Positions 23,701 through 62,586 of a stretch of 64,000 nucleotides of DNA are shown piece after piece. The stretch's first letter is position 1; every line of letters starts with the position of its first letter. Location of the stretch: NCBI RefSeq assembly GCF_964355755.1, contig NC_092680.1, positions 3,844,001 through 3,908,000 of the forward strand, in the 5' to 3' direction. The DNA is from Antedon mediterranea (lineage: Eukaryota; Animalia; Echinodermata). The position numbers and the translations under genes were made by a program. A model generated the notes under the pieces. That model made no database searches and was not told the DNA's origin. It was given only the letters and a program-made list of their open reading frames with translations.

Positions 23701-26700
23701 TGAAAATAAAACAAATCAAATTAAAATTGCCAATAATTGATGCTAATTATTTTGTTTTACATCTGAGAGACTAGATAATAAAAAATGCATTGTTTTTGTT
23801 TATGATTTTCCTATATTGTTTTAAATACAATATCAAATATTTATAAATTCTATAGTATTAGTGTTTCATTGTCAATTTGTTTTGTGATAATAAAATGAAA
23901 AGAATGATATATTAGGAAAATCTCTAGTCAGCAGAGGCTTACTCATATTAAGCTGTTTTTGCAATATTGAAGGCCTATGCATTGTGATAGTCTTTTAAGC
24001 TCTGTCTACACTAACAAACTGTATGTAAAACAAAAATGTGATGTGCCCATATATGGACATGATGATGTCATATTACTACCATATCTTAGCATATCACTAT
24101 CATATCTGAGCATATCACAACCATATGTTTTTTTTGTCACATAATGTTTGATAGTGTAGACAAAGCTTTTATAGTCACTTAAACTAACTCAGTTCTACAC
24201 TTAAGTTTCAAATTCCAATTGTTTATTTCCCTAGAAATGGAAATAATGAAAATGAAAAAAACTTTTTAAATGATTTCTAGAATGTCTGGTCATTGTTTGC
24301 GATGCAACAAACAATTCTTAAAACATTGAACAAAAGATAGATTAATAAGAATATCATAACCGTACAGTATGACTGATGAATATAGACATTTCTTTTTTAT
24401 CAAATCAATGGTAAATACATTACATGGTCAAAACCTCCTTGCCAGTTTCTATTGAAGAAGCTGTTTCTGTACGGAATTTTAATTTAGGTTGTAGCGGTTT
24501 TTCTCATTCTCACAGATTTTCCTCATGTGTAGTGTTTAAAATTAATCAATTAATATTCAGTCCATGCGGTTTAGAATTTGTTCTGTGTCTGTTAATTAGC
24601 ATTAATAGTAATGGCACAAAGTATTAGAAAAATATATTGTCTTGGAGAAATATCCACTGTGTCTTATTAGATCACAATACTATTGAATATCACCAGTCGC
24701 ATTACTACTGTACACGCGCTATAATAAATTGTTTATGAACTTACTGACATCCCAAGTGGCTACAGAGGGCGCTTCACTCAGCAGTTTCTTAACATCGTCA
24801 TCTGTGCTTTGTTCAGCGTAATACTTGGCGTCATGACCTGTACTATCTTTGATCGTCACGTTGGCGCCACGCTTTACAAATAATTCAATCACTTCTTTGT
24901 GGCCTTTTTTACAGCTCAGTATCAAGGCAGTTCTTAACAAATTTAATAAAGTAATTAAATGTAAATGTATTGTTTCATAAATAAAAAATGTTTTTCTAAA
25001 ATAAAGAGGGCAGTATTATAGTAATAATTCATTTAAAAAAATTCATTATGTGAATAATGAATACTGCAGTAATAAATGTTACTTTCTAGAATGTTATATG
25101 TAATTAATATTAGTATTAAGCTCTTTCATACATAATAATAATACCACATTTATATAGCGCCCTTTTCATGAGTAATCGGTAGTCCAACGTCCAACACACT
25201 GCGCCACACGCCCATCAAACTTTATGTGACAAAAAAATGTGATGTGCCCATGTATGGACATGATGATGTCATATCACTACTATATTTGGGCACATCACAC
25301 TTTTTTTGACAAACTAGTTTGACTAGACAGAGCTTTATAGTACTACCTCTATTAAAAGAACTCCTTTGGAACTTAACGGATTGTCCTAATATTATGGGTG
25401 TCTAAATATAGGATGGCTATACTGTTAATTAAATATAGATTATAGATTTCTTTTTAAAAGAGGATAAATTCAGCTGAAAAGGTTACCCTCTTTAAATAAA
25501 GCTGCAGACCTTATATGAATCGTTTGTAACATGACAGATAATTAATATAACAAAAAGCACTTGGAATCTCCATTGAATGGTGGTTGGCTGTAGTGTTAAA
25601 ACATATATTTCCCCTAGTGTACCCTGAATAGGGATTTCTACTACATACCAAATTAGTATTAACACTACGAAAAGAAAATGGTTGTCAGACTGTATATTTA
25701 AAGCCAAATAACTCGGGTAAACCACGGTCAGCCAAGTTCATTGTTTGATACAATTCACTACTATCTGTCATTGTGTCAATTTTAACTGTTTTAGAAAAAT
25801 TCTCCCCCTAATTGAATGTGTCATTGTATCACGTTTTTAATATAATAATTGGCAAATCGATTGTATGAGCAATTCAACTAGCTCTCAATTATTCTGAGTG
25901 TCAACTCACTGTAATAGCTTGTCCTGATCATTGACCACAGCGCCTCTCTCAATAAGCTCACGACAAAGTTCAACATCTCCATGCTCTGCTGCATGCATCA
26001 ATGGTGTCTTACCATTCTAAGATGTAAAAAAGAAAAAAAAATTGCAATAATTTCAGTGCATTCATATGTTGTCTGAATTTAAACTGCAACAAATACTTTT
26101 AGAGTGAAGACATTTTTATAAGAATCCCACAAAGTTAATATTTTTTATTATTTATATTTAAAAAATAGAAAACAAATTTGTTTTTTTAATGCCTTTACAA
26201 AGGAATGAATGAACCCATGTCTCTCACATGCTTCTCCGATTCCTTACCATGATGTCATATTGCTCCTAATTGCCAATGTCTTTAAAGCACATAGTTCTCT
26301 TTTATAAAGACTCATATCCTGGCAATGCTAAACTAACAGTTTATACAATTTTAGATTAACAATTTAAATAAAACATAATACTGTACTTTATCCTTGGATC
26401 CAACAGGAGCGCCACCAAGAAGTAATAGTTTACACGAATCACTATGGTTACCAGCAACTAGTGAAAAAAAGATCATTATCATTATTATTTTAAAAGTATT
26501 GATAATAGTCAGAATTTAAATGGAAAGAGTTCTACTTAGATTATGGTTTGTTGTAGGAAATCACACATTAAATAGTGAGGTTTAAACAATATTATTATTA
26601 CTGTACTTAAAAGTTAGCAGGAGCACATTTTATCATACAGATTAATTATGGAACTTGGTACACATTTAGTATAGTTTGCAGTATGCTCTGTTTCCGAAGG

Positions 26701-29700
26701 AAATAAAGAAAATTGAGGATGTCTTGACATTCTGTTGTCAAGATATTGTCAACTAATACTGTATTTCCTTTGGAAAAAAATGGCCTATCGCAAACTTTAC
26801 TAGTGTTTATTCGCAATGCATTGTGAATGGAGTAAACATCAAGATAAGGATAAGCTAGTCAGCAAGTGTTGTTGACTAGCATTATTGACACAAATTCAAC
26901 AACTTTCAAAACCACATGATTTCTATGTTAATACCAAAAGTACATTGATGACTAGTATTCTAAAAAACCAAGGAAAACGGAATTGACCCTCTAATCTGCA
27001 CTTAAACACTTTGCCACTTCCATCACGGCGGAGTATGTTACAAGGAAAGTCCTTGGGATATGCCACATGCGACACATGTAAAGTATTAAATGGGTTGTAT
27101 AGCTATAGTTTGTGACACATAACACGTATAACTGCTGAACTATGCGCCACAAAATAACGTTTTATTTATTGGGGGAAAAAATCATTAAGGAAAGACATCA
27201 AAAGTTTGTAAATTGCCATTTATTTTTCTATACTGTACAAAATGATGTTAATCAAAGGTAAATACAGAACTCCCTCCTTTGGGACACCTCTGTTCTGGGG
27301 GACCTTTCTCATGAAATGAAAGAGGGAAATTATATGTGACAATGACAACCCCTATTAAGGGGACACATTCTAATGAAATCAACAAGAGCAATAGTGACCA
27401 AGGTCAACCAATATAGTGACTTAGGGGAAAACACCCCTATTTCGCGGAAATTCCTACTCAGGAGATAACATTCCGATCCTATCCAGAGGACAAAATCCCT
27501 ATTCAAGGGGACAACATCCCTATTCAAGGGGACAACATCCTTATTCAAGGGGACAACATCCTTATTCATGGGGACAACACCCCTATTATATTCAGGGGAC
27601 AACACACCTACTCAGGTGACGTTCACTATAAAGGGGACACATTGCTGGGTCTGAAAGTGTCCCCTTAATAGAGGTTTTACTGTATTATGCTATCTTTTTT
27701 TTTATTTTTGAACCATCAACATAGTCAAATGAACAAAACTTTCATTTCATGACTAGCTATCACTGCTGACACATTTTCCTGACCTAGCCTAAAATCATGT
27801 ATCATACACTTCTAAATCTTAACTGTCTTTTTTCAACTTCAATTATATAATTTAAATGATCTGATGTTCATGTTCGACCAAATGTTGTAACTATATTCTA
27901 TGGAAATTCCAGGTCATGTTTCCTCATTGATAGACTTGGAGACAATTATTCATATTTAGTTGTACTTTGTAGTATTAATTGTAACCATTCTTTGAGATTA
28001 TTCATTTTCATTAAAAACAGGAATCATTATTAGGGAGCTTTTAATTTGCGATGACCTAAAGCCTTGTCTACACTATCAAAATTTATGTGACAAAACAATG
28101 TGATGTGCCTATATACGATGATGTCATATCACTACCATATTTGGGCATATCACCACCATATTTGTGCATATCGCTACCATATGTGTGAACCTAGAGACCA
28201 TCAAAACTGTGTTGAGGAATGGACAGAGAAAAACACATCCTCAACCCAACTTCTTGATAGGCACACAAAGAAATTACTTGACCTAACTTGATTCCTAGGT
28301 CATCGGTCGCATCAAATTGAAAGCTTTCATTAATAATCAGATTTTCTTTATATAGTGCAGGGCCGCATGGAAGATTTGAACCAACCCCTTCCCTACGTAC
28401 ACCACTGAAGTGGTGTGGATATTGTTATTACCTGCTAATTGTAACGCTGTTTCTCCTTGAACGTTGAGGGCAGTAGCGTCAGCTTGAAGTTGAAGCAGTC
28501 GTTGGATGCAATTAAAATGGCCGGAGCTTGAAGCACAGTGTAATGCAGTCCAGCCTAATATATAAATAATTTTTAAAAAAAGGTTAAAACTTTATTGGTT
28601 AAAAATATTCAGAAATAAATTGTTAAAAGTCATTAAATGAAGATAAAAGAGAATAATTGTTGGTGTTCTTAATTGATTGATTTTGAATGTTTTTCATTTA
28701 CTAGTAAATTCATACATATTTGGAACTAAAAGAAGTACTAAATACAGAAGTATGAAGAAAGAAGTCTGCTAGGACCTGGCAATTGGTAGATGACAATTTA
28801 GAAACAAGGTAGGTAGTAAATTCTGAGCTTGTCAATAAAGTTTAATAATAGGAAGGGTCAATTTATTTTAAACACCGTTGAGTGGCTTAGAGCATGGCTT
28901 AACTTTGACACACTACGCCATAATATAGAGTAAATATATATTTATGAAAGGCAGTTTGAATGTAAAAAAGGTTTATTCTGATTTTCACTAGACAACCTAA
29001 TTCTTTATGATGAGTCAGAAAGATAAAAAGAGGTTTAATATGGTTTTATCATGCTTATATGCTATTGCGTATTGAAGATTTAAATATCTATAACTTACAG
29101 CACTGTAGAAATATTAATGCCTTTGCGGACAATTTTACCGATAGAGTACCAGAACCAAATTGACATCAAAATACTGTTTCGCTAGTTTCACTTTGTCATA
29201 GACAGGAACCAATTAATCTACAAAGATCACAGCAACGACTTGTTGTTTGACCCGGAGATAAATTAGAGTAAAATAAAATTCCAAGGATGAATTGACCAAA
29301 GGCAAGACTGTTCAAATTGATTAGAATAATATGTATTCAAATATCAAATAATTATTTAAACTTTTGATCACATCACATAAATCGAAAAAGAATGTTTACA
29401 ATACCTCCATACTTTTTGTCTAAAACAGCTGTAATTATTTCACACTTTTATTTAAACTTGTCTTTAGTGACTCTACAGCTCACTGTGTCGGTCGGTTGGT
29501 CGGTCTGTAAACACTAACTTGAGCATGCGAGTGCAGTCATGTATATGGCCTGGTTTCCTAGCTCTTATGTTTTTGACATTTTTAATCTCATATTAAAATG
29601 TTCTATACTTTTTGTATTCTTTATATTTTGACTATTAATACCTATTTCTTAAAATTGAGGTCTTGGAATAGTCCATTATTTCTCTTTTTTTTCTAAAAGT

Positions 29701-32700
29701 ATTCTGATTATTTTTAAAATTCTATTTTTCAGTGGTTTTAATAAGACCATGTAAATAGTGTTGTAATGTTACAGAACGAAACAACACGAACGCGCAATAT
29801 GCATGATAAAAAAATGTCCTACTTGGAAACATTAATTATAAACATGCTAATAAGTAGGAACATTATCATATTACTTTTCAAACTATAACTCAATCACATG
29901 AACTTGAACACAGTAAACGTGAAAACTTCAAGTGGCATTGTTATCATTTTATGTTTTTATATGGATCATTTTGATCATGATTCTGTAAGCCTTAGTGGTT
30001 GCTTGGTGTTTGTTAATGATGTCTTTAGCACTACCATATTTAGGCTTATCACTACCATATTTGGTGTTTGTTTGTATACCTTGCTTGTCAACAGCATTCA
30101 CGTTGGTTCCTAGTTGTAGCAAAACCTCAAGGCAAGGATACTGACCAAGCCTAGCAGCATGATGAAATCTGTCGTACAAATAATTAAAAAAATAATATAA
30201 TGAAAAATTGCACTTTTTGTAAAGGATTAGAAAATATGCATTTTATGAGTGATATTGTAATATAAAACTTTTAGCAGTTACAGGGCAACCATAGTAACTG
30301 TCACACACATATCAGGACACAATTAGCTTTCAGTTCCTTGTTACTAAGAATAGCTTGTCAGCAATGTTAAGGTTAGAGATGGAAATACTTTACGACATTA
30401 GGATATTAGTCAGTTTATCGTCACATGACTGGTAGAGAGAAGGTGATTTTATTCTGGGCAAATTTTTAAAGATACCGATCGATTTTATACGGTTCTAATT
30501 AGATTTGTCTTGTTAGGCTTTGGATAGCAATAAATGGAAATCTAGGATGATTAAGATTAGGATTAAGATTATTAATTAAGATTAGGTTATGGTTGCGTAG
30601 GCTGATGTTTACCCTATTCCTAACCACCCAATCAAAAGTTAGTACTCCAATCCAAGTCCGAAATCTTCAAATATGACCATAAACATGTTTTAAACTAGCT
30701 TAAGTATATTCCCCTCACAATCAAAGCACTATTTTATGGTCAGGAGCTTAAATTTTTTTTAAACATCTACCTACTATGTAGCCCAGCATGTCAAACATTA
30801 ACATCCGACGGAACACATTATGTGGGACATGTACGATATGATATACAGTACCATACTATGTGTCACCATATGTCATGTCTGTCAGGAAGGGGGCCTAATG
30901 AATAATACCATATTTGTACGTGTCTATATTGTATCCTTCCGTCTACTTTTTATGGTGACCTACCACACACTGTTTTATCTTTATAGTATATTTCATTTTT
31001 GTCCCTACTATTATTATTCATTATAATATTTGTATACAATTAGTGTGGTAAACAAATGAATTAATAAACTTATAGATTCTATCATGAAAGTGAGGTTCTT
31101 GATAACAGTAGGTGATAATGACCTCACTGAAACTATAAAGACACAAAATGTATACCTGCCCAGTTCCATGCATGCGTTTTTTATATACTGTACATGGCAA
31201 CCTGAAAAGGTAATACATAATGTGTGTTTCTCGTGTACTGGTTGCTAAGATACTTACGCACTCTTTCCCTCTGCATCTAATTTGGTAGCTGATGTTCCCT
31301 TCTTGGTCAACGTGCTTTGAAGCTTCTCGGGGTCACCAGCATCTACGGCTTGCAAGACCTTGTCATCATACTTGGTCCAATCATTTACCTACAAAAAAAA
31401 AAACATTTATTATTATAATAAACTAAAATATAATATGTTTTATAATAATCATTATTTAAAATATAGAAACTATAGAGGGCAGTATGTAACATTAAGAATT
31501 ACAGTAGGTTTTAAGTTAAGTTTTTCTAAATTCATATTTATGAAACTAATTGAAATATTTATTTATACTGGGCGACCTCTTCAGTCAAAGACTGGTCTTC
31601 CAGGGGTCCCAGTTATGATTTGTGGCTGTGATGTACTAGTATAGTACACCAGGGTAACCCCCTACTTTTCTTGAAAGATGATAGGATCAGATTTAATAAT
31701 GTATAGTCACTGAAGGTGGACCAACTGATAAATTAAAAAAATTAGAAGACAGTTCAAATAATCCATAGCTTTTGATTGGTCAATTGGCTTGCATTGCAGT
31801 TTACGTTCTTGCGTTGCGAGTGGGAACCGAACTTGATATTATCTTGAATTTGTTTTGGATAAACCAAGACTACTGCATCATATTCAGAGAAATCAAACTT
31901 TCCTTTAAATCTTTTCGTCTGATTCATCTACAGACAACGAGGGACATCACCTAGAGTCCCATAACTATTTCCTAATATTGGTCTTGAAGAGAAAGTACAG
32001 AGCCTCGTTCAAACGCGATGACTCTAGGCCCAACTGACCTAGATAGATAGTGAATAATATCCAATGGCTGTAGGCTAACAAAAACATCCTTTAAGTTTAA
32101 AATCACCAAAACCTACGGTCAAATAATGGTCACATGTTTCATACATTTTAATCAGTGGTCAACACATTCATAAATATGTAATTTATTAATTTATATGTAT
32201 AAAATGTGTGCATGGATTGGTCATGTTACTGCAAAACGACAACAGAGTGTGGTTGTCATTACGATGATGTCATTTTATCTCAGACTACTAGGATGTGTTG
32301 ATTTGTTTATGTTTTTACATCATTGTGAGGTCAAATTGAGACTGCTATTTTGCTGAAACTACATGAAAAGTATTAAAAAAGTGATATTTTTTTTTTCCAG
32401 AATGCATTATAGTTTTTTTATTTTGGAACAAAATTTTTTTTTGTCAGTATGCCATTTATGCACTGTCAATTGTATGACCCACTATACGACCCCCGGGAGA
32501 TGTGCGTCATTTGTCCAATGTGCGTCATACCTTATGAATACAATGACGCACCTGTGCGTCAAAACTGTGACTTACCTTGAGGTGACCGTGACGCACCCAT
32601 TTTGACATTGACCCACCATTGTTCATTGATGTGACGTACCATCTAGGTTTTTTGACGCACCTCTGCGTCAGTAATTATTTGTAAATGAAGCACCTCTCCC

Positions 32701-49100: not shown

Positions 49101-50931
49101 AACACCGCCGTGGTTGTTTTTTTGGACCTAAATGATGATAAATGGTCGTTGACAAAAACAAATAGAGGGCGCTATTACAATTTTTTCAGTCGTCGAAAAG
49201 TATTAGATGGGTTTGAAGCAGTCTGGTAGGCCCTCTACTAGGCCTTGGTCCCAGGAAATTGCATTTATTCATTGTAATATGAAATGAAATATTATAAGTT
49301 TCCAGTACTAGCCCACTATGATTGGGGTGGGGCGTAGCTAGCTAAGACAATTATTTTGAGAATATATCTGTATAATATTTCATTCGTATGCTAATACACT
49401 GTGCTCAAGTGGACCCAATTTGGAGCTAGTGGACAAGGGGAGCACAGTGGTATATAATATAAATAAAGTCACCAAATTGTAATAAATTTAAGAAAAAACA
49501 ATATTCTTTGTGTTTCCTTAGGCAGAGTCAATGTTCTTAAAAATGGTTACGTCAGTAGATTAAGTTTATATTATAAAATCTGTTTCGTTTCTGAGTTGCT
49601 GTAATTGTCGTTGTATCTGTTAAACCAAGCTGTAAGTGGTGTATTTGTTGCTGCTGTTGCTTCTGGTTTAAACAAATATCTTTTCGTATGTTAATACACT
49701 CATTAAGTGGACCCAATTTGGCACCAGTGGATCACGTTAATATAAAACAGAAATAAGTCACTGAATTTTCCGTCACATCTTGTATGTCCGATACACTGTC
49801 CTCCAGTTGATTACATTTGGCGCCAGTTGAGCACAGCGAAATAGTCACATTCAAAAACATTGAGAAAAATACTTCTGGAATTCAAAAATATTTTAAAGTA
49901 GATATATATATATATATATACAGTACTAAACCACTAATAAATTAAGTTATACAAAGGAAATCTAACAACAGGAGCTCCAGAGATCAAGGGTTTCATTTGT
50001 GGCTACGACACGAAGTTCCACGCCCTTTGAAATAAAAGGCACTGAGCGTCGGTGGTCTACACAGTAGTAGTAGTATTGGTGGTATTTGTCGCAGCCAGAC
50101 ATTACGTTCAAAGGACAGTTACGAGTTCCTATCTTGGCAAGGTGAGCTCAGTGTCCTGTGGTTAGATTGCCTTGCTTTATAACGCATGATATTAGAAGAT
50201 TTTCTTCAACAAGTTTTGTAGGCTACAAAGTCCATATAATAATGTTTTATGAGTGGTCCCTAACTTATAATGTACGATATCGCATTCAGACGGTGAATGA
50301 TCATTGAATGTTTTTCAGAACATTTCATTTTCCTTTAAAATTCCATTATAATATATTCATATCTTTTATAAAATGTCGTTTCCAGACTACCAGCAACGTT
50401 ATTACTTATTAATAGTAGTTTTGACTAAAAAAAAAATACACCGTCTGCCGAGTTTATTTAAAATTTTGAACAACGTTTGTGCAGACACTCATCAAAGTGA
50501 ACACATTTGAGTGAGAGGTCCGGTTGGCGTAGGAGAGGTAAAACGTATTTAAGTATCATAGCTTAAAATTAGCCTTTATTCTATTATTTCGCACATTATT
50601 ATACGCTATCGACTCTTTACGTAACAGTAATTTTTCTTCGTTTGATCCGCTGTTTGTTCTCAGATGGATTTTAAGGGTGCAAAGAGCGAAATGGAATTTC
50701 GTTCTTTAGTCACTATATTTTCCCGCATCTAGCCCCCGGCCGCCCTGAATACTAGATCCTGTGCCTCCTGAGCGGGCCAGTGACTACCTACTGTAGGCCT
50801 ACTCTTTAATAGGAATTATAATTATACTGTACAGTATATACATTCCCAAACTACTGTATTGTAAAAGACGTTTACACTTTTAAAACTGTATAAACAAAAT
50901 ATTCTACTAACTGTTTCTTGTAGAAGAAAAC

Positions 50932-51384
50932 ATGCATCTATTTGCCAGTTGGTTTCTGTTGGTACTCAGTCTTAGTGGAGCATTGCCTCTACAGACTACC
51001 AACCTACCTGATGGCCGTATATCTACTTCTGTAGATATACCACAAATAGCAGAAGGAAGCAACCTAAACGAAGTTACACCAGTTGATGCTATAGCAGAGG
51101 CCGAAGAAGCTGGACCCATATTCAAGAGTGACTCCAGAGTTCAAGAAATTGCTAATGATGTGTCACCTGATCAAGTCAATAAAGGATTTTTCCATTGGTG
51201 CTTCTGGCATCATCGTCGGCACGTGATCATTGTACACCACTACCATCCGTACTATCACCATTACTATTACCATCATTATTATCATCCTTATTATCGTCAC
51301 TATTGTTATCATCATTACTATCATCCATATTATCGTCATTATCACTACCACCATCATTACTGGCGTCGTCGTCACTGGTTTTAG
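50932..51384 (+). CDS. Secreted prepropeptide with His/Tyr-rich cationic C-terminal domain (150 aa), function unknown
   Basis: Signal-peptide-like MHLFASWFLLVLSLSGA, then an acidic pro-region. The last 66 aa contain 22 His, 19 Tyr, 7 Arg and no Asp/Glu. A splice acceptor (ttcttgtag, 50923) precedes aagaaaacATG, and ATTAAA lies at ~51452. Confidence 0.72.
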   Translation: MHLFASWFLLVLSLSGALPLQTTNLPDGRISTSVDIPQIAEGSNLNEVTPVDAIAEAEEAGPIFKSDSRVQEIANDVSPDQVNKGFFHWCFWHHRRHVIIVHHYHPYYHHYYYHHYYHPYYRHYCYHHYYHPYYRHYHYHHHYWRRRHWF

Positions 51385-52237
51385 ACATTTAAATTGTTCT
51401 AAGCCTCTAGGCCTAGTAGTACTACTACTAGATTGATAATGTCAACATTGGATTAAAATTGCTTTAAATGAACATTTTTGTAGGCCTACTCTTTTTGTCT
51501 TTTAATGTTCTACATTTGTTATTTAAAAGAAAAAATAGTTTCGTCCCTTTCGGAATTCTATCCGTGATTAAGATTACGCCGAGCAGAACAAAATGCAACT
51601 TTGACGTGCCATAGGCAATAACGTCAGCAGCAGCAACCAACAACAACTTCCGTTGTGAACGTCGTTATACACGATCAACATGCGAAGTAAAACCACATAA
51701 AAAGTAATTTGAAGGTACTTTTTAAGAAATAAATCTCACTTTAGATCAAGATTAATATTTACTTCACCGTATGGATGTGCAAACCTATATCCTGGGTCTA
51801 TGCTAGCTAGGCCTAGTAAGTAGGCCTAGCTTGTGAGTGTAGTAGGAGGGCCAGGCCCACCAGCTGCCAGGAAAGGCGCTAGGAGCGAACCTGTCTGTCT
51901 GCAGGCTAGAGGCCTAGGCTAGGCCTAGCTACTAGGGTAGAGACTAGTAGGTAGGCCCCAGCCAGTGCAAGCCTGCAAAGAGGAGGAAGTAGGACAGGTA
52001 CTAAAAAAGAATGAATTAGACCTAGCTAGGCCTATCCATTCGTAGGGCCAGGCCTATATAACATTAACAATCATATTCTCCTGTGTGTAAAACATACATA
52101 GTAGCTAGGTCTAGGTCTACTAGGCTACTAGGTAGGCCCTAGACTAGGCCTATTTTGCAATCTTCGTTGTATTGTAATATTTTCAAATATATACATTTTT
52201 TACATATTGTTACATGTAGACTTGAATTTAGTGCAAA

Positions 52238-55200
52238 ATGGGGGAGCTTGCTAATCGTTTGGCAGTTTTGCAAGCACTGTTCCAGCAGTATGACACAGAC
52301 AATTCAGGAGAACTTACACCAGTACAGCTGCAGGCATTACATTCAAGCCTACGATTTGGTGGTATTAGCCTTTCACAGGTACAGTAAAAACAGAAGTGGT
52401 GACAATCAACCATGCAAATGGAAATTTCTTTCGGTACAATTGACCATTATTGAACCATATGTTTCATGAGGGTAGCCCACCCAGAAAAGCTGATTATTAG
52501 GGCACTCGAAACACATTATTACCATGTATCTACAGGGCTGTAGCCAGCATGAAGTTTTCAATTTTCACTACCCACCCCAATTCCCCAACAGAGATTGGCA
52601 TAAATATATTAATAATATTATATTTAAAGCATCTTTGCCTCGTCTGTAGCCCTTGATCTAAAGTTCGGCTAGTTCTCAATCTCTGTGCTGATTGACAACA
52701 AAGAGGGAGCATGGTCGAACTTGGTTGGTTGACTGTTCCAGCATGGTCTACCATGCCTCCACACCAAATATTAACTATCAACACGTACCTCTAGCCTAGT
52801 ACTTCCCCCTGGATGTTGTTGGCTGTTGGTTCATTCTTTATTGATTACACATTTCTACCATCACAGGTAAAGGCTGCCATGTGCTACACATGTATGTGCG
52901 ATGATATTTCTTGTGAACTGGATGAACTGTTTGATGCTCTACAAGAGTTGGACAGACGTTATTTCTTGGTTCAAGACTTCCGCTGGGAATTCTCGCTTCT
53001 TGATGGGGACCAAACGGATTTTATACGCGAGGATCAGGCAAAGTGAGCATAATTAAGCGAACTATAAATCATATATCATTTATTAAATAACATTTTTTTA
53101 TTTGCAGTATTTTATAAGAATATACCAATAGGCATAGATAAAATAGATCTAGATGTCTATACTCTCTACATAATCACAGTTCAAAAAGTGATTTATCATG
53201 GTTAGGAAAAGGTTGTATAACATTGGCCAATCAGATATATATATCCAATCTGCAGACAGTACTGTTTCGATCTTATTAGATCTCGTCAGTGCAGATCAGG
53301 TTTCGAAATGATCTGTACCAAAATATAGGCTGAGCAAGTTACGCAGAACAATATATATAAACACCACAGAACAAGTTCTAAACCGCCCAGTGATATACTG
53401 ACAATTTATATATTGTATTGATATTATTTTGGGTTATTATTTTTTCATACTAAATAACATCTTAAAAAGACACAACAACTGTTTTGCTGTGAGTCTCTAC
53501 CCTGGTGACATCACTTAGCAGTTGCCTAGTTGAACCTCTGATTCTTATAGTATGTCTATGTACTAAAATAGATGTACCAATGTATAGATATGTTAAAATT
53601 ATAATTAAAGGAAAGTGTCTCTTTCACTCAGGTTTTTAATGGAAGCTGTTCATGGTGACCTCTTCTCTAAGCGACAATGGGAGAAGTTCCTTAAGAACCG
53701 AGCTGTCCCTGGTAGTGGTGTCTCTTTTGCGGAAATTGAGGTCGACCTTTGCAATATCCCAAGTAGAGAAGACATAGCTCTTGAACAATTTGAAGAAAAA
53801 CAAGAAAAAGATGGTATGTTTAAAATTTATTTCCAAAAACTGGTATAGTGACTTATTTGTGCTTAGCTTACCTGGATAAATCAAACTTAGTCCTGTCATT
53901 TTTTAAAGAGGAAAGCAGCAATTGGAAAAATACCTAGCACTAATAATAGAACATTCTATTCATAGACAAACATTACTGATTCTGATGTTGTGATGTCTTA
54001 AGTTTTGGTTGGAGGAAAGTTTACTGCAAACTTTTTAATGTACTAATTCCAACTACAATTTTTTATAATGTTTTTAAGAACGTTTAAGAAAACACATTGA
54101 GAAGAAACTGGCAGATGAGAAAGCTAAAGCTGAGATGATGTTGCAACTTGATGAGGATAGTAAAAAGGCTGAAGCAACGGAAAGGCAGAAAAATGCAGAG
54201 GAAGAACGGAGGAAGAAGGATGAAGAGGACCGATTGAAGAGAGAGATGGAAAATAAAATAAAACAGAAGAAAGATGAAGGTAATAGTGGTTTTTTTTATA
54301 TTAATTTAGCTTTTTAATTATACTGTATCAGGTCAGGTGTCCCCTGAATAGAGTTGTCCCCTGAATAGAGTTGTCCTCTGAATAGAGGTGTCCCTGAATA
54401 GAAGTATCCCTGAATAGAGGTGTCTCCTGAATAGAAGTGTCTCCTGAATAGAGGTGTCCCCTGAATAGAGGTGTTCCCTAAATAGAGGTGTTCCCTAAAT
54501 AGAGGTGTCTCCTGAATAGAAGTGTCCCCTGAAATAGAGGTGTTCCCTGAATGGAGGTGTCTCCTGAATAGAAGTGTCCCCTGAATAGAGGTGTCCCCTG
54601 AATAGAGGTGTCCCTTGAATAGAGGTGTCCCTGAATAGAGGTGTCCCCTGAATAGAGGTCTCCCTAAGTAGAGGTGTCTCCTGAATAGAAGTGTCCCCTG
54701 AATAGAGGTGTCCCTTGAATAGAGGTGTCCCTGAATAGAGGTGTCTCCTGAATAGAGGTGTTCCCTGAATGGAGGTGTCTCCTGAATAGAGGTGTCCCAT
54801 AAATATAGGTGTATAGAAAATCAGTCTGTATATGAAGTAATCCACTTACAGAGTCACTACACTCTCCCAAGATTCTACTTAATTACATATTAACTATTAA
54901 AAATGATGGTATTGTTTTTTAAATAATATTTGTAATTACAAATAATCCTTTTGGCCGACTAGCCTGTAAGTTAACCCTGAATTTTATGAATAATTTATGC
55001 ACTCAGAAAAACAATAGGGAAAAGGCCAATTCAATAATTATGTTTACTTAATTTGTTATCACTTATATTGTGTAATTTCTTTTTTTATAAAATAACGATA
55101 AACTTTCATTTAAGTGGACTGTGAATTTTTTATTTTTAGTTGTGGTGATCTTTCACAATAGTTTTTAGCAATATCCTTTAATGACAATTTATTTTTGTAT

Positions 55201-58200
55201 AAATAATTCAATAGTAAGCTTAATTCTGGTGCCCTAAATTTTAATTTAGTTTTTGTTTTACTGTCAGGTTTTTCTTTTTATCATAACTACACAAGGTAAG
55301 TGTTGTGGCTTCACAAAAGATAAATGAATATTGCGCATATGTCTAGAAAATAAAAACAAAATATTTCCCTTGTTTTTGAAAATACCTATACAGTGATAAT
55401 ATTAATAGTATTGCAATTAAAAGTCAGTTTGCACACTGCTAAATTAAAATATATAATGTTAAGATGCTTTATGTTAAAACTTGGTAAGTATTTTTGTTCA
55501 AATATTCTGCACATTTTAAATTATTTTGTGTTGATAAAACAATTTTATTTTTTTATTAAATGAAGCCTAATTAAACGTCATGTGACTCCATCTTCTGTAG
55601 CAATAGCATGAGTCTCTTTAGCAGTTATGGATTTAACATATTTTAAATAGGTTAGGGGATGGGGAGAAGGGGTAGTCTAGGTTCTAGACCAAAATTAGTA
55701 AAAGATTTTGGCACATACAGCATTTTATACATATTATATATGAGCTTGTATTTTCTGACAAAAGTCGAAATGCTGACTGGTAAACTAACATAAAAAAACC
55801 AATAAATACAGACTTGGGGCAAGTCTAGGGAAGGGTTGGCTTAGGCCTTCAATTCGCTTGTCAGTATGCAATGCTTTCTGCTCCCATTGTATTTGTTTGT
55901 ATTTTATATTTTACTTCTTTAGACACAAAAACCAGAAATAGAGCACCTCAATTTAATTTTACAATTCCACTTAATTCAAAATGTTTAATAAATTTAGTGT
56001 TTTTTTATATTTTGTTGTTTTTTTTGTACTCTGTAACCCTGCTTGTCTTTTTTATTTTTTAAAGAAATTTTAATTGTTGTGAAGTTAAATTCAAATTAAG
56101 AATTTCTACCTTTTTAAAAAATGTTTCTGTATTAAATGTCATTTTTTGTGTTTATTTTGTTTAACAAATTTCGAGCTGCGTCAGGATTAGTAGTTGGAGG
56201 TCTAGAAATATCTTGGTGTGGTCAATCACTGGTCAAGATATCCTGGTGGTAGTCCAGATTTTTATCCAGTGGCCATATTCTTCCCACTATGAGAAATACC
56301 CCCGTAGAATTAAAAAAGTAGTAGAGAATTAGAATTTGATAAGAGAAATTCTTATTTAAATAATAAAATATGTATTGACTTAAGTGAATTTACTTAAGTT
56401 CTTACTGTCTGGTAAAGATGATAACAGGATGTAAAACTTTTATAAAATGACAATACTAAGCAAATATTGAGTAGTATTACCTTAATTATTTAAAATACAG
56501 TTAAATGTGTAATCTCCATTCCAGATGACAAAGACAGCCCATACAGCACAATTATTATCTTAATGAAATGTTTATATTTACCAGAGTTAGGAAAAAAAGA
56601 AGCAGAAGAAAGAGAGCGACGTGAAAAAGAGCAGAGAGAAAGAGAAGAGGCAGAACGACAGAGAGAGCTAGAGATCATAGAGGTACAACAAGCATTAGAA
56701 GCTCAAAGGGAACTAGAAAAGAAGGCAAAGGAGTTGGAAGAAAAACAGAAACGAGATTTGGAAGAAGCAAAAGATGATGAAGAACAGGCTAAGGTAAATA
56801 GCAATTAGAATGTCATTTATGCGGTTTATTAATTTTCATTTGTGAAACATCCCCTGCTTGCTGTATTTGTAACAGTGGCGTAACGCAGAAGCCTGAGGCC
56901 CCTGGTTAGGAACCCTTCGTGGCCCTCCAATGCTGAAGGCCTTGGACGTCTTTAGCTTTTTTGACATATTTGAATGTCCCCATAAGCTCCGGGTGCCCAT
57001 AAGCTCAGGGGCCCCTGGGTTTAGCCAGTGAGCGCTCATAGCCGCCACTGATTTGTAATACATTAATTGATAAACCTGGGCAATCATTCATTTTTTCAGT
57101 GGTAGAATTCCTACATTCTTTTTTGTAACTTGATTTGTGTTGTTGAATTGCACAGGAGCATCATTTTCCGATTGACACTGGTACACACATTATTATATGT
57201 TACTATTAAACATCAAAGTCCACTACTAGAAATGAAGTAACTGTGGATCATTTGTTAATTTGTTAGATTTTAGCAGAAAGAGAGAGACTTGCTGAAGAAG
57301 AGGCAGATAAAGCTAAGCAGGCAGCCAAGACTGCTAAAGATGCAAAGACTAGGCAAGAAGCGGAAGAGGCTGAGAAGGCAGCCAGAGAAAAGGCTAAACG
57401 TAGGCTTACAAAAACTAATTTATAAGTGAAATACTAGTTATTAGCCCGGGTAAATTGTAAAGTTTTTTTTCATTTTTTTATGGCTTTTGGTTTTTGGATC
57501 GGCGACAGAATTCTCTTGGCCTCTTTTGCCACTCTTTGGCATAGTCAAACTATTTGTTGTAAATTGTTTACCAAAATAAATTCAAAAACAAAAATAATAA
57601 GATAAAAAAATAATCTTGGGGTATACAACACAATATGAAAGACATTAATAAAACACATTGTACCAATTCCTTTATTATGTTTAATGACATTTACATGACA
57701 TTGTTTATTTGTATTTAGGAGAAAGAAATGAGAAGATTCGCAAAGAACTTAAAGTGGCAATCAAGAAACGTGACAAGAAGATGCTAGTAAAGTCTGTGGG
57801 TGAATTTAAGAAGGCAAAGTTAGCTGACGTTGATGGGGATTTACCAAAAGCCGAGAGAATTCTGAAACTGTCGCAAGCTAAGCAAGGTACAGTATGATAA
57901 AATACAAACTTTAAAAAAAATGTTAGTGCGGAAATCCATGATCAGACTTGTTTCCTTAGAGTTACCAATTTGTTTACTTCAGTCATTATTTGAGGAAGGT
58001 ATTACTTACTTAGTCCGGGACATACCCAAACTTATAATAATGACTAAATTCCTCCTTCCTATCTGCCATTGTGACATCTCTATATGTATGTCTTCCTTGT
58101 TTGGCAAGCCCATGTTTGTCTGCCACATCAGAACATCTGCAATGATTTGTTCTCTATTGCAAAGACAGTGCCCAGCAATGTCAGTCGTCTTCTTATTGTT

Positions 58201-61200
58201 TCTGTTATTTTTGGTGTGGCCAATGAACCTTACAGTACTTCTTTGTTGCCAAGGAAGGTATAGTAAAGGTAAATTTCCACAATCTTCTTTCTTTTTATTC
58301 TTTAAGAGTTGGAAGAAGCAATGGAAAACAGAGACTTGGAGGGTTTGGAGAAGGCAATCACGTTCGTCAAGAAGAACACATTTGAAGGAGATCTACCACA
58401 TGAGATGATCCGTGCCAACAAGATGCTCATCAGTCTAAAACGATTAAAACGGTTGCGTGATGAAATCCTCAACTTGAAGCAGAGTACGGTAGCGGAGATT
58501 CGCAGTTACAGCAAGCCCCCACGAGTTGTCCATCAAGTGATGATTGGCACATATCTGTTGCTAGGCAACAAGGAAAAATCTTTAAAGGTACCATATGGCC
58601 TCTATAAAGGTTGAAGGTTATCTCTGTTACTATGATATTATCACTGAGGAGAAATGTTTTAATGTTTATAATATTTTAATGTGATAACTGTTATTAATTC
58701 ACTTACGTTTATTTTAACATGAGTGATAACCTATCTCAATTAACGTTCTTCACTAATATTTCTATTAACTGTATAAGGCGCAAGTAACAATCTTGTGCAC
58801 TCTTCGTCACTGTGTGAATTCTGAAATGTTATGTGGGCTTTATTCATATGTAGTCTCATGGGATACCTGAAATAACATTTGAAAAAGGTTGGAGCGATGA
58901 GGATAATAATAATCAACCGCACTAATTCTCAGTGATGTTTTCGTAAAAGTAACAGGTGCTAACCTTTAACCGAGGTCAAAGGAGAGTTTGTCAGCCACTT
59001 CTTAACCTAAGCACTACTTCACAGTGTGTACATTAATATCATGTTTCACTCATTTTAAAAGTAATTAAAGGACAAGTAGACCAAGGACCATATTTTTTTT
59101 TCAGAACAATCGCGAGATTAAGGATATCGCCACACGCGCTTACCGTACAGCCGTCACCGTAAATTGCTGTGACGTCACAGGTGCATCGCAAAATCTACTT
59201 AATGAGTCCAGATAAGCAAAAGAAACAATAAAAAAAATCAACATTTATATTTGTTACAATTTATTTAGAAAGTGTTTACTGTAAATTTTGCGATGTACCT
59301 GTACGGCAAGCGCGTGCGGCGATATCCTTAATTTTGCGATGGTTCTGAAATCATATGTATATCCCTAATACGTTGTTAAAATATGGTCCTCGGTCAAGTT
59401 GTCCTTTGATAGTCATATATATCATATTTAGATATTATTCTTCAAAATAATGGAATTGATGAAATCAGATATTTGCCTAATGCATGAATAACTACTATTA
59501 CCTTAGAAATTATAGTAGATATCATAAAATATTAATACAATTCATACACCAAGTGGAATAATTGTAAAAGCGTTTAGAGTTTCGAATGAAAGATCAGAAT
59601 AATGGGGAAGAAAATCAATAAACCAATTAGAACATATTTAGTTACAACATGACACATCCATTTCACACATCAATCATATTTTAGACAGAAACATGATATG
59701 CAGTAGGTTATGAAGAGGTTTAGGTAACTTCTTATTTTAACAAGTGATGGCCTGGGTGAGACTTGGGATGTTGAAGTCAAATTTGCTTTATTTTAAAGAT
59801 GTATTGTCCCCCTGAAAAAATAATTCTTAAAATATTTTGGCTGAATATTTCATTTTAATGCCACAAAATATTATTCACTTTGACCAGAAAAATTGATTTA
59901 AAAAAAATGATTTGGTTGAATTTATTTTGTCATTAATTTATAATTGAAAACATAATTGTTTTTTTTATGGAAGTGACTCACTTTATTAAAACTACAAAAT
60001 GGCCTATTCAAAGTTCGATTTTATTAATTATTTGTTTTATGTTTTTTTGGGTACAATACATCTTTAAAGATATTGTCTACCTGCCTCTACCGCTAACCCC
60101 TGCATCCGCCCCTGCTGTGTTTTTTATTTTATCCTTTTTTTGTGTAAATGATGTACGTAGAAATTTAGACTTCCACATCCAGAGTTAGCCTCAACACCAG
60201 ACTGTCCCTTAGTGCCCAGTCATAGATATGTGCCAATTATGTTCTCTATGAGTAGTAGGATGATCATTTCTTTCCATTTTTTATATCAATTTTTATTCAT
60301 TAATTTCATTCAAACAGGTAAGTTTGTTTTCATTATCTTATTTTTAAGAATTTATTTGCACTTTTGCACAACTTTGTCCTATAATTCTTGTTTTATTATA
60401 TACATTGTATTTTTATATAGATTATTTGCAGTTTTCCATTTTTTTTATGAGATAATAAAATATTTATTTTCTTACTAAAAAAATACCTTTAATAAATGCC
60501 CAAAAAAAACCCGGTTAATTACGCACAATTTGTGGTGTTGCAATTTATTTTTTATTCTGAATATTTTTATTTATATTCACTATGATTTGAAATATATCAC
60601 ATGACACTATTAAAAGCCTCAGTAATCTGAGGATATAACTTAATTATTTTGAATGTCTAATTTGATTTGATTTTATTCCTACCCACACACCTGACACCTG
60701 TTCAATCACATGATTTAGTGCAATTCAAATTACTAATGACTAGACTTTGATTATTGTCACTATAGCGACACTGTTACAATAGTAAATAAATAGACAAATA
60801 ATACAATTAACTGTTCATTATGTTGGCTAGGGTTTTCTTTTTTTAACATGCATGAATTTTTCTAGCATGAATACATATGTACCTATTACCATTATTTATT
60901 AATAGAACTCCTATCAAGGGGACACTCAACATAACTCTACAAGGGTGTCCCAAATGAGGGGTGGTACTGTATTAATATTATACAGGTACAAGATATTATG
61001 ATGGTATGATAGAAAACTCTAAAAAAAAAACATTTTTGTAGTATAGTATTTATAATAGTTATTGATAGGCAATTACTAGGTGAAATAAATATAAAAATGA
61101 ATATATACTGTATAAATCCAAAGGCAAATTACTGAAAAAATGACATGGGTATCAGTGGCTGGATCTCAATGGAGATACAAAAAAAATAGCGAAAGGCTAA

Positions 61201-62389
61201 ATCAAAACGATAAATAAAAAGCCAGAAAAGTTAGCAGAGCTTTCGGGCAACACTAGCCCTTCATCAGTGGATCAAAAATGAATATATATATATAATTCAA
61301 TTCAATTCAATTTCAATTCAAGGAACATTTATTCACGTCCAAAAGACAAAAGTAACAAAAACAAAATGGCAAGTGATAAAACAAGAAAATGGACGAAGGC
61401 AAATCCCAAAAAGATTACAATCTTGTGACGGGATTGCCTTTACAAAATATTTAAATTAAGAGAAGAAAAAAAAAAATATAAATAAAGAAAATAAATTAAT
61501 TAAACAATAAAGAAATACAAAATATATATAAAACCAGTAGATAAAAGTTGGAATAAAAAATAAAAAAAGAACAGAAAAATATAATTTATTAAATCAAAAT
61601 CATTATAGTTATATGTATTATGATTGTAATGATGGGTTATTAGTCCAACCTACAGTAGTGTGGCTGACTGGAGTATAAAGCAAATTCCATAATCCCACCC
61701 CTCGCATTAGGCAGTAATCCACTTAATCCACCATAATTTTTTAAAACAATTATTTACAACCTAATTCAGGATTGGAAGGGAATGCAAGCTCTAATCGGAA
61801 AAACTGGAAAAGATGGACTGAAGCGACGAGTCAAAGAGTTTAAGCTGGAAACCAGTATTGCTGCCACTGCCGACAGAAGCAAGACCATTCTGGAGGAGTT
61901 TGATTTGGAGACTGTTAGAGACGTTAGCGCTGGAGCTGCCATCTTCTTTGCTTGGGTGAGTGCAAATTCACTCAGTTCTCCTGGAACACGTATGGAACTG
62001 CTAGAAGTTTAAAAAAAAGGCTAGCAAGCCAGCCTATAGTCAAGGATTTTTTGTTCTTCCACAAAAAGGGGCAAGTGCGAGCGTAAGCTAGTACTTTGGA
62101 ACATGTAAAAAGATGTGTATGGAATATAGTTTTAGACCTAGAAATTGTGATTCTTTCAAACTCTAAAAACCCACCAGCTTGGCCAGATGGCAGATTTGTT
62201 TATGCTACTGTATATTTTTTTAACTTCTTTTTATGTCACTATTTTCAGGCCACTGCTACCATTGATGAGATAATTGAATACCACAAGCAAAGGGAAGCGG
62301 GTGAAGTGCAGCCTGGACAGACTGGGCCTAAAACAGTCATAAAACACACAACACAGGGTGGTGGTACCCTCACTGTAAATATCAAATAA
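52238..62389 (+). CDS. Uncharacterised ~605-aa protein: calmodulin-like EF-hand domain, E/K/R-rich helical rod, C-terminal dynein stalk/microtubule-binding-domain-like region
   Basis: Exons 52238-52378, 52867-53042, 53632-53813, 54079-54279, 56585-56793, 57267-57399, 57719-57886, 58307-58587, 61770-61955, 62249-62389. All are GT-AG with consistent phases (1818 nt). EF-hands LFQQYDTDNSGELTPVQL and FSLLDGDQTDFIREDQA. C-terminal LNLKQSTVAEIRSYSKPPRVVHQVMIGTYLLLG...DWKGMQALI...FDLETVRDVSAGAAIFFAWATA. Probable 5' non-coding exon ends at 51714; AATAAA at 62571. Confidence 0.85.
53248..53296 (-). ncRNA. Minimal type I hammerhead ribozyme (Penelope/retrozyme type)
   Basis: Minus strand reads ATCTGCA-CTGACGA-GATCT AATA AGATC-GAA-ACAGTACTGT-C-TGCAGAT. 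It has a 7-bp helix I, the CUGANGA and GAAA core, a 5-bp helix II, a palindromic helix III and a GUC cleavage triplet. Confidence 0.85.
54336..54800. repeat. Tandem array of ~27 copies of a 16-18-bp unit (GTGTCCCCTGAATAGAG)
   Basis: Direct inspection. The unit is the reverse complement of the internal sub-repeat of MITE family B. Confidence 0.92.
56873..57050. mobile_element. hAT-type MITE (178 bp) with 8-bp TSD
   Basis: CAGTGGCG...CGCCACTG termini flanked by a perfect ATTTGTAA direct repeat (56865-56872 and 57051-57058). Confidence 0.88.
59069..59405. mobile_element. Largely palindromic Kolobok-type non-autonomous element (AGG...CCT ends, TTAA/TTGA flanks)
   Basis: aggacaagtagaccaaggaccatattt pairs with aaatatggtcctcggtcaagttgtcct. 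Inner IR attaaggatatcgccacacgcgcttaccgtac pairs with gtacggcaagcgcgtgcggcgatatccttaat. Confidence 0.8.
59797..60063. mobile_element. Kolobok-type MITE with TTAA TSD; decayed relative at ~47595-47750
   Basis: TTAA|AGATGTATTGT ... ACAATACATCT|TTAA. Confidence 0.8.
61234..61270 (-). ncRNA. Second minimal hammerhead ribozyme motif in a Penelope-like remnant (~61145-61270), helix I weakened
   Basis: Minus strand reads CCA-CTGATGA-A-GGGC TAGTGTT GCCC-GAA-AGCT-C-TGC. The core is conserved, helix II is 4 bp and helix III is the palindrome AGCT, but only 2 bp of helix I remain. Confidence 0.62.
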
Positions 62390-62586
62390 TAATTTGTAAA
62401 GCCTATAGTTACCAACAGCCTCGCATCGTGCAGGACGGTCCCGCATTTCAAAGTGATTTTTAATGAAACATGCATTTTGAACAAACACATGCGTGACCAC
62501 ATATTTGTCACACGTTTAGCAGAAGTATGCATGATTATTTTTTATCACAATTTGAGAGGAAATGCATTCAAATAAATTAGTATATA

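Follow-up and report, generated by a model that had tools for sequence, protein, structure and literature searches.

A predicted motor-free dynein-type microtubule-binding domain joined to a charged rod and an EF-hand-fold head in Antedon mediterranea

The sequence analysed here is a 64,000-nucleotide stretch of the echinoderm Antedon mediterranea (NCBI RefSeq assembly GCF_964355755.1, contig NC_092680.1, positions 3,844,001 to 3,908,000 of the forward strand), referred to below as the window. Between positions 52238 and 62389 it holds a gene whose 10 coding exons encode a protein of 605 amino acids (1818 nt, with no internal stop codon and GT-AG boundaries at all introns; Table 1). An earlier note, made from the sequence alone, had described this as one intact gene that joins an EF-hand head, a charged rod, and the microtubule-binding domain (MTBD) of a dynein heavy chain. 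The open reading frame (ORF), the intron boundaries, the transcript contigs, and a downstream AATAAA all uphold the single gene, and the three parts were recognised correctly; what escaped notice were two helical repeats, the probable single-helix nature of the rod, and the mobility of the module that the repeats and the MTBD form. On the basis of family profiles and predicted structures, we conclude that the C-terminal domain is a true dynein-type MTBD without a motor.

Evidence for splicing comes throughout from one sequencing run of one study, presumed to be RNA (X1). The nine predicted coding junctions are upheld by three kinds of observation: introns 1 to 4 (four of the nine) appear directly as GT..AG joints in X1 contigs; for intron 5, the loose end of the contig over exon 5 reads the first letters of exon 6; and introns 6 to 9 are supported because a 1324-nt contig, placed on exons 5, 8, and 10 and ending at 62561, has gaps of 300 and 187 letters that match the lengths of exons 6 plus 7 (301) and of exon 9 (186). 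The prediction missed a non-coding 5' exon, to which a 141-letter loose end of an 823-nt contig leads by its match to the window at 51683; since this exon, ending at 51714, adds to the 10 coding exons, the total is at least 11. Within exon 4 the two contigs meet end to end (54241 versus approximately 54243), and none covers the whole gene. Near the 5' exon, a scan with a consensus for RFX X-box sites found none with zero or one mismatch, and a two-mismatch X-box-like site at 51623 gives no support for a ciliary promoter because it is 1 of 59 such sites in the window. The gene is real: it is spliced, and it is conserved in animals.

Family profiles were needed to detect the dynein likeness because single exons and full-length proteins gave weak or no dynein matches; a search with exon 8 by itself gave dyneins no better than E 0.5 to 1.6, and one with exon 9 by itself gave no match. 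A profile of 39 module-only relatives (A3) matched the PDB with a best E of 3.7e-13, and the best 60 of its 83 matches were all dynein heavy-chain stalk regions, including a chain of 4583 aa that bears a spoke-protein label and was matched over the same stalk region. Profiles of 20 and 17 relatives reached dynein MTBDs at E 2.6e-5 and 3.6e-6, respectively. Pfam MT matched 13 of the 39 module-only relatives at E ≤ 0.01, and the Oscarella orthologue scored above its curated cut-off (26.0 versus 24 bits). As for the class of the donor dynein, yeast cytoplasmic dynein and DNAH6 score alike in the A3 search.

Predicted structures point the same way. The window protein was represented by AlphaFold2 models of two relatives, the sea-urchin (Lytechinus) orthologue (pLDDT 76.7) and an annelid-like C-terminal half (pLDDT 88.8). 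Both models matched MTBD and stalk structures at Z 12 to 16.6 and are predicted to contain the six-helix fold between the antiparallel stalk helices CC1 and CC2. The sea-urchin model superposed on 6kjo (Z 14.4, root-mean-square deviation [rmsd] 2.7 Å over 137 residues), 6rzb (Z 13.7, 2.6 Å over 143), and 6rza (Z 13.9, 2.9 Å over 145), and the second model on 6l4p (Z 12.9, 2.4 Å over 123; 48,161 chains searched). Across five isolated MTBDs (these four and 6kio), Z was 12.2 to 14.4 and rmsd 2.4 to 2.9 Å, with which Foldseek agrees, while 6kjn and 2rr7 superposed less well (6.2 and 3.5 to 4.3 Å). The structural match extends into both stalk helices, by approximately 25 residues in CC1 and as many in CC2. 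N-terminal to it, two helical repeats (aa 350–447) are predicted to stand in for the rest of the stalk.

Comparison with dynein heavy chains (Dyn1 6kjo/6kjn, mouse DYNC1H1 6rzb, DNAH6, and DNAH7 6rza; PF12777) shows what was kept and what was shed. Shared features are the six-helix fold between CC1 and CC2 stubs and a set of motifs: Glu/Arg/Ser and Pro-Pro in H1, LLG in H2, Trp in H3, Ser in H6, and Trp in CC2. Unlike dyneins, the family protein has no AAA ring, linker, or tail, and its stalk of approximately 25 residues per helix is capped by the two helical repeats; unlike the aligned dyneins, it lacks the prolines of CC1 and CC2 and carries a three-residue basic insertion in the H3-H4 loop; and it has Asp for the H6 arginine and no flap insertion. 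As the earlier note had stated, the gene is free of AAA and Walker motifs: the six-AAA motor ring, full stalk, linker, and tail are not in the complete 605-aa gene, no Walker-A-like match and no dynein-like exon lie inside it, and neither is evident in window ORFs of at least 70 aa upstream of 52000.

The rod that separates head and module comprises 184 residues, of which 63% are charged and 12% are Leu, Ile, Val, Met, or Phe. Opposite-charge i+4 pairs (0.30) far outnumber same-charge pairs (0.06), and there is no clear heptad signal; in E/K/R content, i+4 pairing, and the lack of a hydrophobic heptad, the rod is like an ER/K single alpha-helix. In the models the rod helix is continuous except at aa 200–215 of P0002. 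The rod therefore looks like a single alpha-helix, which would be approximately 28 nm long here and 17 to 31 nm long in most orthologues.

Residues that would face tubulin were counted in 49 non-redundant segments of the EF-hand form and in 132 other carriers of the module (181 in all), with mouse numbering taken from the 6rzb alignment and range and checked against K3299 and R3337, two named residues of the mouse dynein MTBD in passages of PMC6629372. Passages of PMC4298687 report that E3390 in dynein H1 pairs with alpha-tubulin R403, that R3469 and K3472 in H6 (Dictyostelium) pair with alpha-tubulin E416, and that an electropositive H2-H3 face of the MTBD mediates weak, diffusive microtubule binding. 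Glu467 of the window protein, which aligns with the H1 glutamate, is present in 49 of 49 EF-form segments and in 130 of the 132 other carriers. Other tubulin-facing residues of H1 and H3 are also kept in the EF form (Arg/Lys469 in 48/49, Lys461 in 43/49, and Lys500 in 42/49), and a basic patch has been added in the H3-H4 loop and H4, formed by GKTGK and by Lys515 and Arg516, the latter two present in all 49. The net charge of the MTBD segment of the window protein is +6.

Our preferred reading, to which we give about an even chance, is that the protein is a passive microtubule tether, in which a motorless MTBD is held by a putative single-helix rod of approximately 28 nm to a head that probably docks on a partner rather than sensing calcium. 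Profile matches and modelled structures show the last 120 residues to be an MTBD on a stub of stalk with approximately 25 residues per helix, and the two helical repeats are predicted to cap this stub where the AAA ring would be; with no ATPase to slide the stalk, its affinity would therefore be fixed. Binding to tubulin may then take place at the intradimer cleft, by way of the H1 residues that were kept and the basic patch gained in H3-H4, and would probably be weak or diffusive; the rod would set the distance and hold a partner approximately 20 to 30 nm from the microtubule. The head would serve as the anchor, as a myristoyl group or a transmembrane helix appears to do in other carriers of the module. 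Taxonomic range hints, more faintly, at action in ciliated or flagellated cells.

Several observations weigh against the preferred reading. The H6 arginine position holds Asp (Asp548) in 46 of 49 EF-form segments and the H6 lysine position holds Ala (Ala551) in 47 of 49; Arg547, one residue before, is present in 44 of 49 and may or may not compensate. The positions of mouse K3299 and R3337 are Gln in 46/49 and 48/49. Pfam MT was found in 0 of the 20 full-length proteins of alignment A1, in no single-exon scan, and in none of a set of 11 full-length relatives that overlaps with those 20. A whole-model pTM of 0.47 for the sea-urchin orthologue means that the arrangement of the domains is not fixed by the model, and this model lies nearer the low-affinity yeast structure 6kjo (2.7 Å) than the high-affinity NMR structure 6kjn, for which those 137 residues give 6.2 Å; three structures bound to microtubules (6kio, 6rzb, and 6rza) superpose on it at 2.6 to 2.9 Å as well. 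Finally, MTBD-like folds occur in axonemal chains other than dyneins, so that the fold alone is no proof of binding. Because the H6 Arg/Lys pair is lost, we regard microtubule binding as likely but probably weak or of an altered mode, fixed rather than like the strong state of dynein.

Losses of this kind could also mean that the domain, its MTBD fold repurposed for interaction with other proteins (for instance within a radial spoke or another axonemal complex), no longer binds tubulin. The charge reversal at the H6 arginine and the glutamines at two basic tubulin contacts would suit such a change, as would the many unrelated N-termini that the module tolerates, and motorless relatives of the fold do occur in axonemes: residues 440–598 of Chlamydomonas radial spoke 1 chain 7jtk_C (Z 11.9, rmsd 3.9 Å over 153) and residues 1326–1496 of bovine sperm axoneme chain 9fqr_Xl (Z 10.6, 3.2 Å over 144). 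Unlike the family, both belong to much larger proteins, share only 10–12% identity with it, and are not among the best 60 of the 83 profile matches. Chain 7jtk_C is presumably RSP2, a protein that carries a DPY30 docking motif; 9fqr_Xl is, at a guess, EFCAB5, and in that case a named protein already joins EF-hands to this fold. PMC11779644 gives EFCAB5 a DPY30 docking motif, and the mouse and pig EFCAB5 entries (1406 and 1304 aa) are shorter than residue 1496 of 9fqr_Xl. Pfam scans of the family proteins found no DPY30 family. The 2021 papers on radial-spoke structures, or PMC11779644, may already note an MTBD-like domain.

A third such fold occupies residues 1207–1457 of 9ya2_L, a non-motor, microtubule-bound chain of the Toxoplasma intraconoidal microtubules (Z 8.7–8.8, rmsd 3.0–3.1 Å over 123–124, a Z below 9 being modest for a helical domain); it has 10–15% identity with the family and is likewise not among the best 60 of 83 profile matches. 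By its length this chain would fit ICMAP2, which passages of PMC12819142 describe as a protein of 1678 aa that links the two intraconoidal microtubules and sits as a dimer between protofilaments 3 and 4; those passages do not mention a dynein likeness of the domain. Motorless MTBD folds thus have precedent in three non-dynein PDB chains, from which the family differs by keeping sequence-level similarity to dynein. That similarity, which the radial-spoke and conoid chains lack among the best 60 of 83 matches, argues against repurposing, as do the net positive charge of the MTBD segment and the H1 motif around Glu467, with the glutamate kept in 179 of 181 non-redundant segments; we therefore consider loss of tubulin binding rather unlikely.

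For the head, the earlier note had proposed an EF-hand unit with hands 2 and 4 degenerate and, from it, a microtubule tether, possibly calcium-regulated, or a competitor for dynein's binding sites in cilia or sperm axonemes. The fold and the degeneracy are borne out: the models show a four-hand fold like those of calmodulin and centrin and of the penta-EF proteins (calpain, sorcin, grancalcin), with structural matches at Z 6–8.6 and rmsd 4–8 Å, and exon 1 matches EF-hand_6 at E 1.4e-5 (24.8 bits against a cut-off of 25). In contrast to those proteins, the family has degenerate calcium loops and carries its head on the same chain as a rod. Departures from the calcium-binding consensus extend to hands 1 and 3. 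We scored ligand positions 1, 3, 5, and 12 against this consensus in 51 non-redundant heads, and a complete four-ligand loop was found in EF1 or EF3 of none of them (0/51). Position 12 is Gln in 37 of 51 EF1 loops and in 29 of 51 EF3 loops, the window protein having Gln in both, and amphioxus has lost position 1 of EF1. Calcium control is doubtful because no head has a complete EF-hand loop. An ESM Atlas search with the head returned generic EF-hands.

That calcium on the head might switch microtubule binding on and off, whether the protein acts as a tether or as a competitor for dynein's site, could still be argued from the calmodulin/penta-EF-like fold, from the D-x-D-x-S-G that the EF1 loop of the window protein keeps at positions 1, 3, 5, and 6, from the orthologue P0008, which passes the Pfam EF-hand cut-offs, and from Glu at position 12 in 11 of 51 heads for each loop. 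The incomplete loops and the approximately 28 nm of rod that would separate head from MTBD speak against a switch, and the loss of the H6 basic pair, with Asp for the arginine in 46 of 49, weakens competition for dynein's high-affinity site; overall, such a calcium switch seems quite improbable. The helices of the head are strongly conserved across the family, which fits a partner-binding surface.

Searches with exon 8, the C-terminal region, and the head returned 26, 111, and 34 protein matches, respectively. Head, rod, and module occur together in echinoderms, hemichordates, amphioxus, tunicates, molluscs, annelids, and nemerteans, and also in a brachiopod, a bryozoan, cnidarians, an orthonectid, and two sponges, so that the taxonomic survey that the earlier note had called for extends from sponges to tunicates. 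No vertebrate, arthropod, or nematode appears by name among the 26, 111, and 34 matches and 30 looked-up clusters, the 1812 clusters of the profile search described below being unnamed. Orthologues bear automatic or uninformative names (trichohyalin-like, caldesmon-like, uncharacterized, and similar), and no paper on the family or module was found among titles and abstract starts, subscription journals lying mostly outside the search; within these database and literature searches, the statement that no named protein has this architecture holds. The closest relative is that of the crinoid Anneissia japonica (89% in exon 8), whose protein is sister to the window protein in a FastTree phylogeny of 121 module segments (moderate support, no dynein outgroup). 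In this tree the EF form broadly follows the animal tree without being a strict clade, 46 of its 49 members grouping with 4 to 7 other carriers. The Anneissia model P0001 is without the region of exons 3 and 4 that is spliced in here, which is likely an annotation error.

It is most improbable that the gene is the remnant of a broken dynein heavy chain, or a pair of genes joined by the gene model, as the lack of a single contig over the whole gene and the faulty family models in databases (P0001, without the exon 3-4 region, and P0019, with a reverse transcriptase insertion) might suggest. Exon 4 is common to both contigs, the full head and the module occur together in 74 proteins, and the branching of the module tree is broadly that of the animals, the window protein being sister to the crinoid one. 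Moreover, the gene contains neither an exon like those of dynein nor a Walker-A motif, neither is evident in the upstream ORFs of at least 70 aa, and the 4 of the 34 head matches that have the head only stop within the rod or run into intron-like sequence.

The repeat-plus-MTBD unit is itself a mobile module, as judged from its sequence matches, because it is found at the end of KY/hillarin-like, vWA/CLCA, and other proteins too. When 1.84 billion representatives were searched by profile, 222 clusters matched at E 1e-30, 898 at 1e-10, and 1812 at 1e-3; dyneins and charged rods may be among those counted at the two looser thresholds. A scan of 92 carriers, picked mostly by length, found KY/hillarin-like Ig domains in 49, vWA or CLCA in 4, EGF in 1, Pfam MT in 1, a low-scoring repeat match in 1, and nothing in 36; none of the 92 contained a motor family or an AAA family at E ≤ 1e-5. 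In 153 of the 181 non-redundant carriers, no more than 60 residues separate the MTBD from the C-terminus. The KY/hillarin-like proteins of molluscs, annelids, and amphioxus, built from a transglutaminase-like core (PF01841) and an Ig-like_KY domain (PF23265), share the mostly C-terminal module with the window protein; unlike it, they begin with another kind of sequence, in many cases bearing a myristoylation motif, and have no EF-hand head. Many of these proteins end in the module (P0101–P0112 and P0114–P0254), and an amphioxus CLCA/vWA protein and a hemichordate EGF membrane protein also carry it. An ESM Atlas search with the module returned unnamed mollusc clusters.

By pattern rules for myristoylation and hydropathy, 39 of 61 non-EF carriers of at least 500 aa that start with Met have a predicted membrane anchor (a myristoylation motif in 30, a hydrophobic helix in 10), compared with 1 of 49 EF-form proteins for each feature; this difference suggests anchor, spacer, and MTBD as a common plan of the carriers. 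The excess of anchors may reflect a habit of the KY family rather than of the module, which tells against that plan. More tentatively, early animals may have detached the MTBD and capped it with two repeats, yielding a mobile, ATP-independent anchoring module that now ends hundreds of clusters (with an EF-hand head and single-helix spacer, in myristoylated KY/hillarin-like proteins, or in transmembrane vWA/CLCA and EGF proteins); these would be unrecognised membrane-to-microtubule linkers that read dynein's tubulin footprint, a possibility that we hold to be somewhat less probable than the tether itself.

Table 1. Positions in the window of the features of the 605-aa gene
Feature	Position	Strand	Remarks
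Non-coding 5' exon	51572..51714, start approximate	+	splices to 52220; X1 contig; GT donor at 51715
Coding exon 1	52220..52378, ATG 52238	+	EF-hand 1 loop aa 19–30 at 52292–52327, Gln at position 12
Coding exon 2	52867..53042	+	degenerate hand 2; EF-hand 3 loop aa 93–104 at 53002–53037, Gln at position 12
Coding exon 3	53632..53813	+	degenerate hand 4; head ends at ~aa 160
Coding exon 4	54079..54279	+	E/K/R rod
Coding exon 5	56585..56793	+	E/K/R rod
Coding exon 6	57267..57399	+	rod end; rod in all ~aa 161–347
Coding exon 7	57719..57886	+	predicted helical repeat 1
Coding exon 8	58307..58587	+	predicted helical repeat 2, CC1 stub, MTBD H1-H2; MTBD segment from 58438
Glu467 codon (exon 8, invariant Glu)	58495–58497	+	
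Coding exon 9	61770..61955	+	MTBD H3-H6, basic GKTGK loop
Asp548 codon (exon 9, replaces dynein H6 arginine)	61920–61922	+	
Coding exon 10	62249..62389	+	CC2 stub, low-confidence tail, stop codon
3' untranslated region	62390..62576	+	first AATAAA after stop at 62571–62576

Other features of the window were observed alongside the gene. Intron 4 contains a tandem repeat with a unit of approximately 17–18 nt (54330–54800), whose high depth in both sequencing runs marks it as a dispersed genomic repeat. Just upstream of the gene, an ORF on the plus strand (50911–51384) has a signal-peptide-like hydrophobic N-terminus, an acidic middle, and a His/Tyr-rich basic C-terminal repeat; it has no Pfam match at E ≤ 1 and looks like a secreted peptide precursor, for which a metal-binding or antimicrobial role would be a guess. 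On the minus strand, scattered exons from approximately 12000 to 30300 encode an ankyrin-repeat and long coiled-coil protein, which is presumably RAI14/UACA-like. A Nudix-like exon (8577–8867, minus strand, by eye), presumably NUDT17-like, adjoins a 449-aa reverse-transcriptase-like ORF of a non-LTR (long terminal repeat) element (7032–8378, minus strand, also by eye).

The dynein MTBD is usually treated as a part of the motor, in which the AAA ring sets its affinity through sliding of the stalk. A natural, motor-free MTBD maintained since the split of sponges and bilaterians would offer a fixed-registry version in which to ask how the H1 glutamate and the H6 arginine contribute to strong and to diffusive binding. 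The family members are also candidates for as yet unassigned links of 20–30 nm between microtubule and membrane, or between microtubules, in invertebrate cilia. This reading would also give a testable function to the many proteins now mislabelled as trichohyalin-like or caldesmon-like, as well as to the C-termini of invertebrate KY/hillarin-like proteins.

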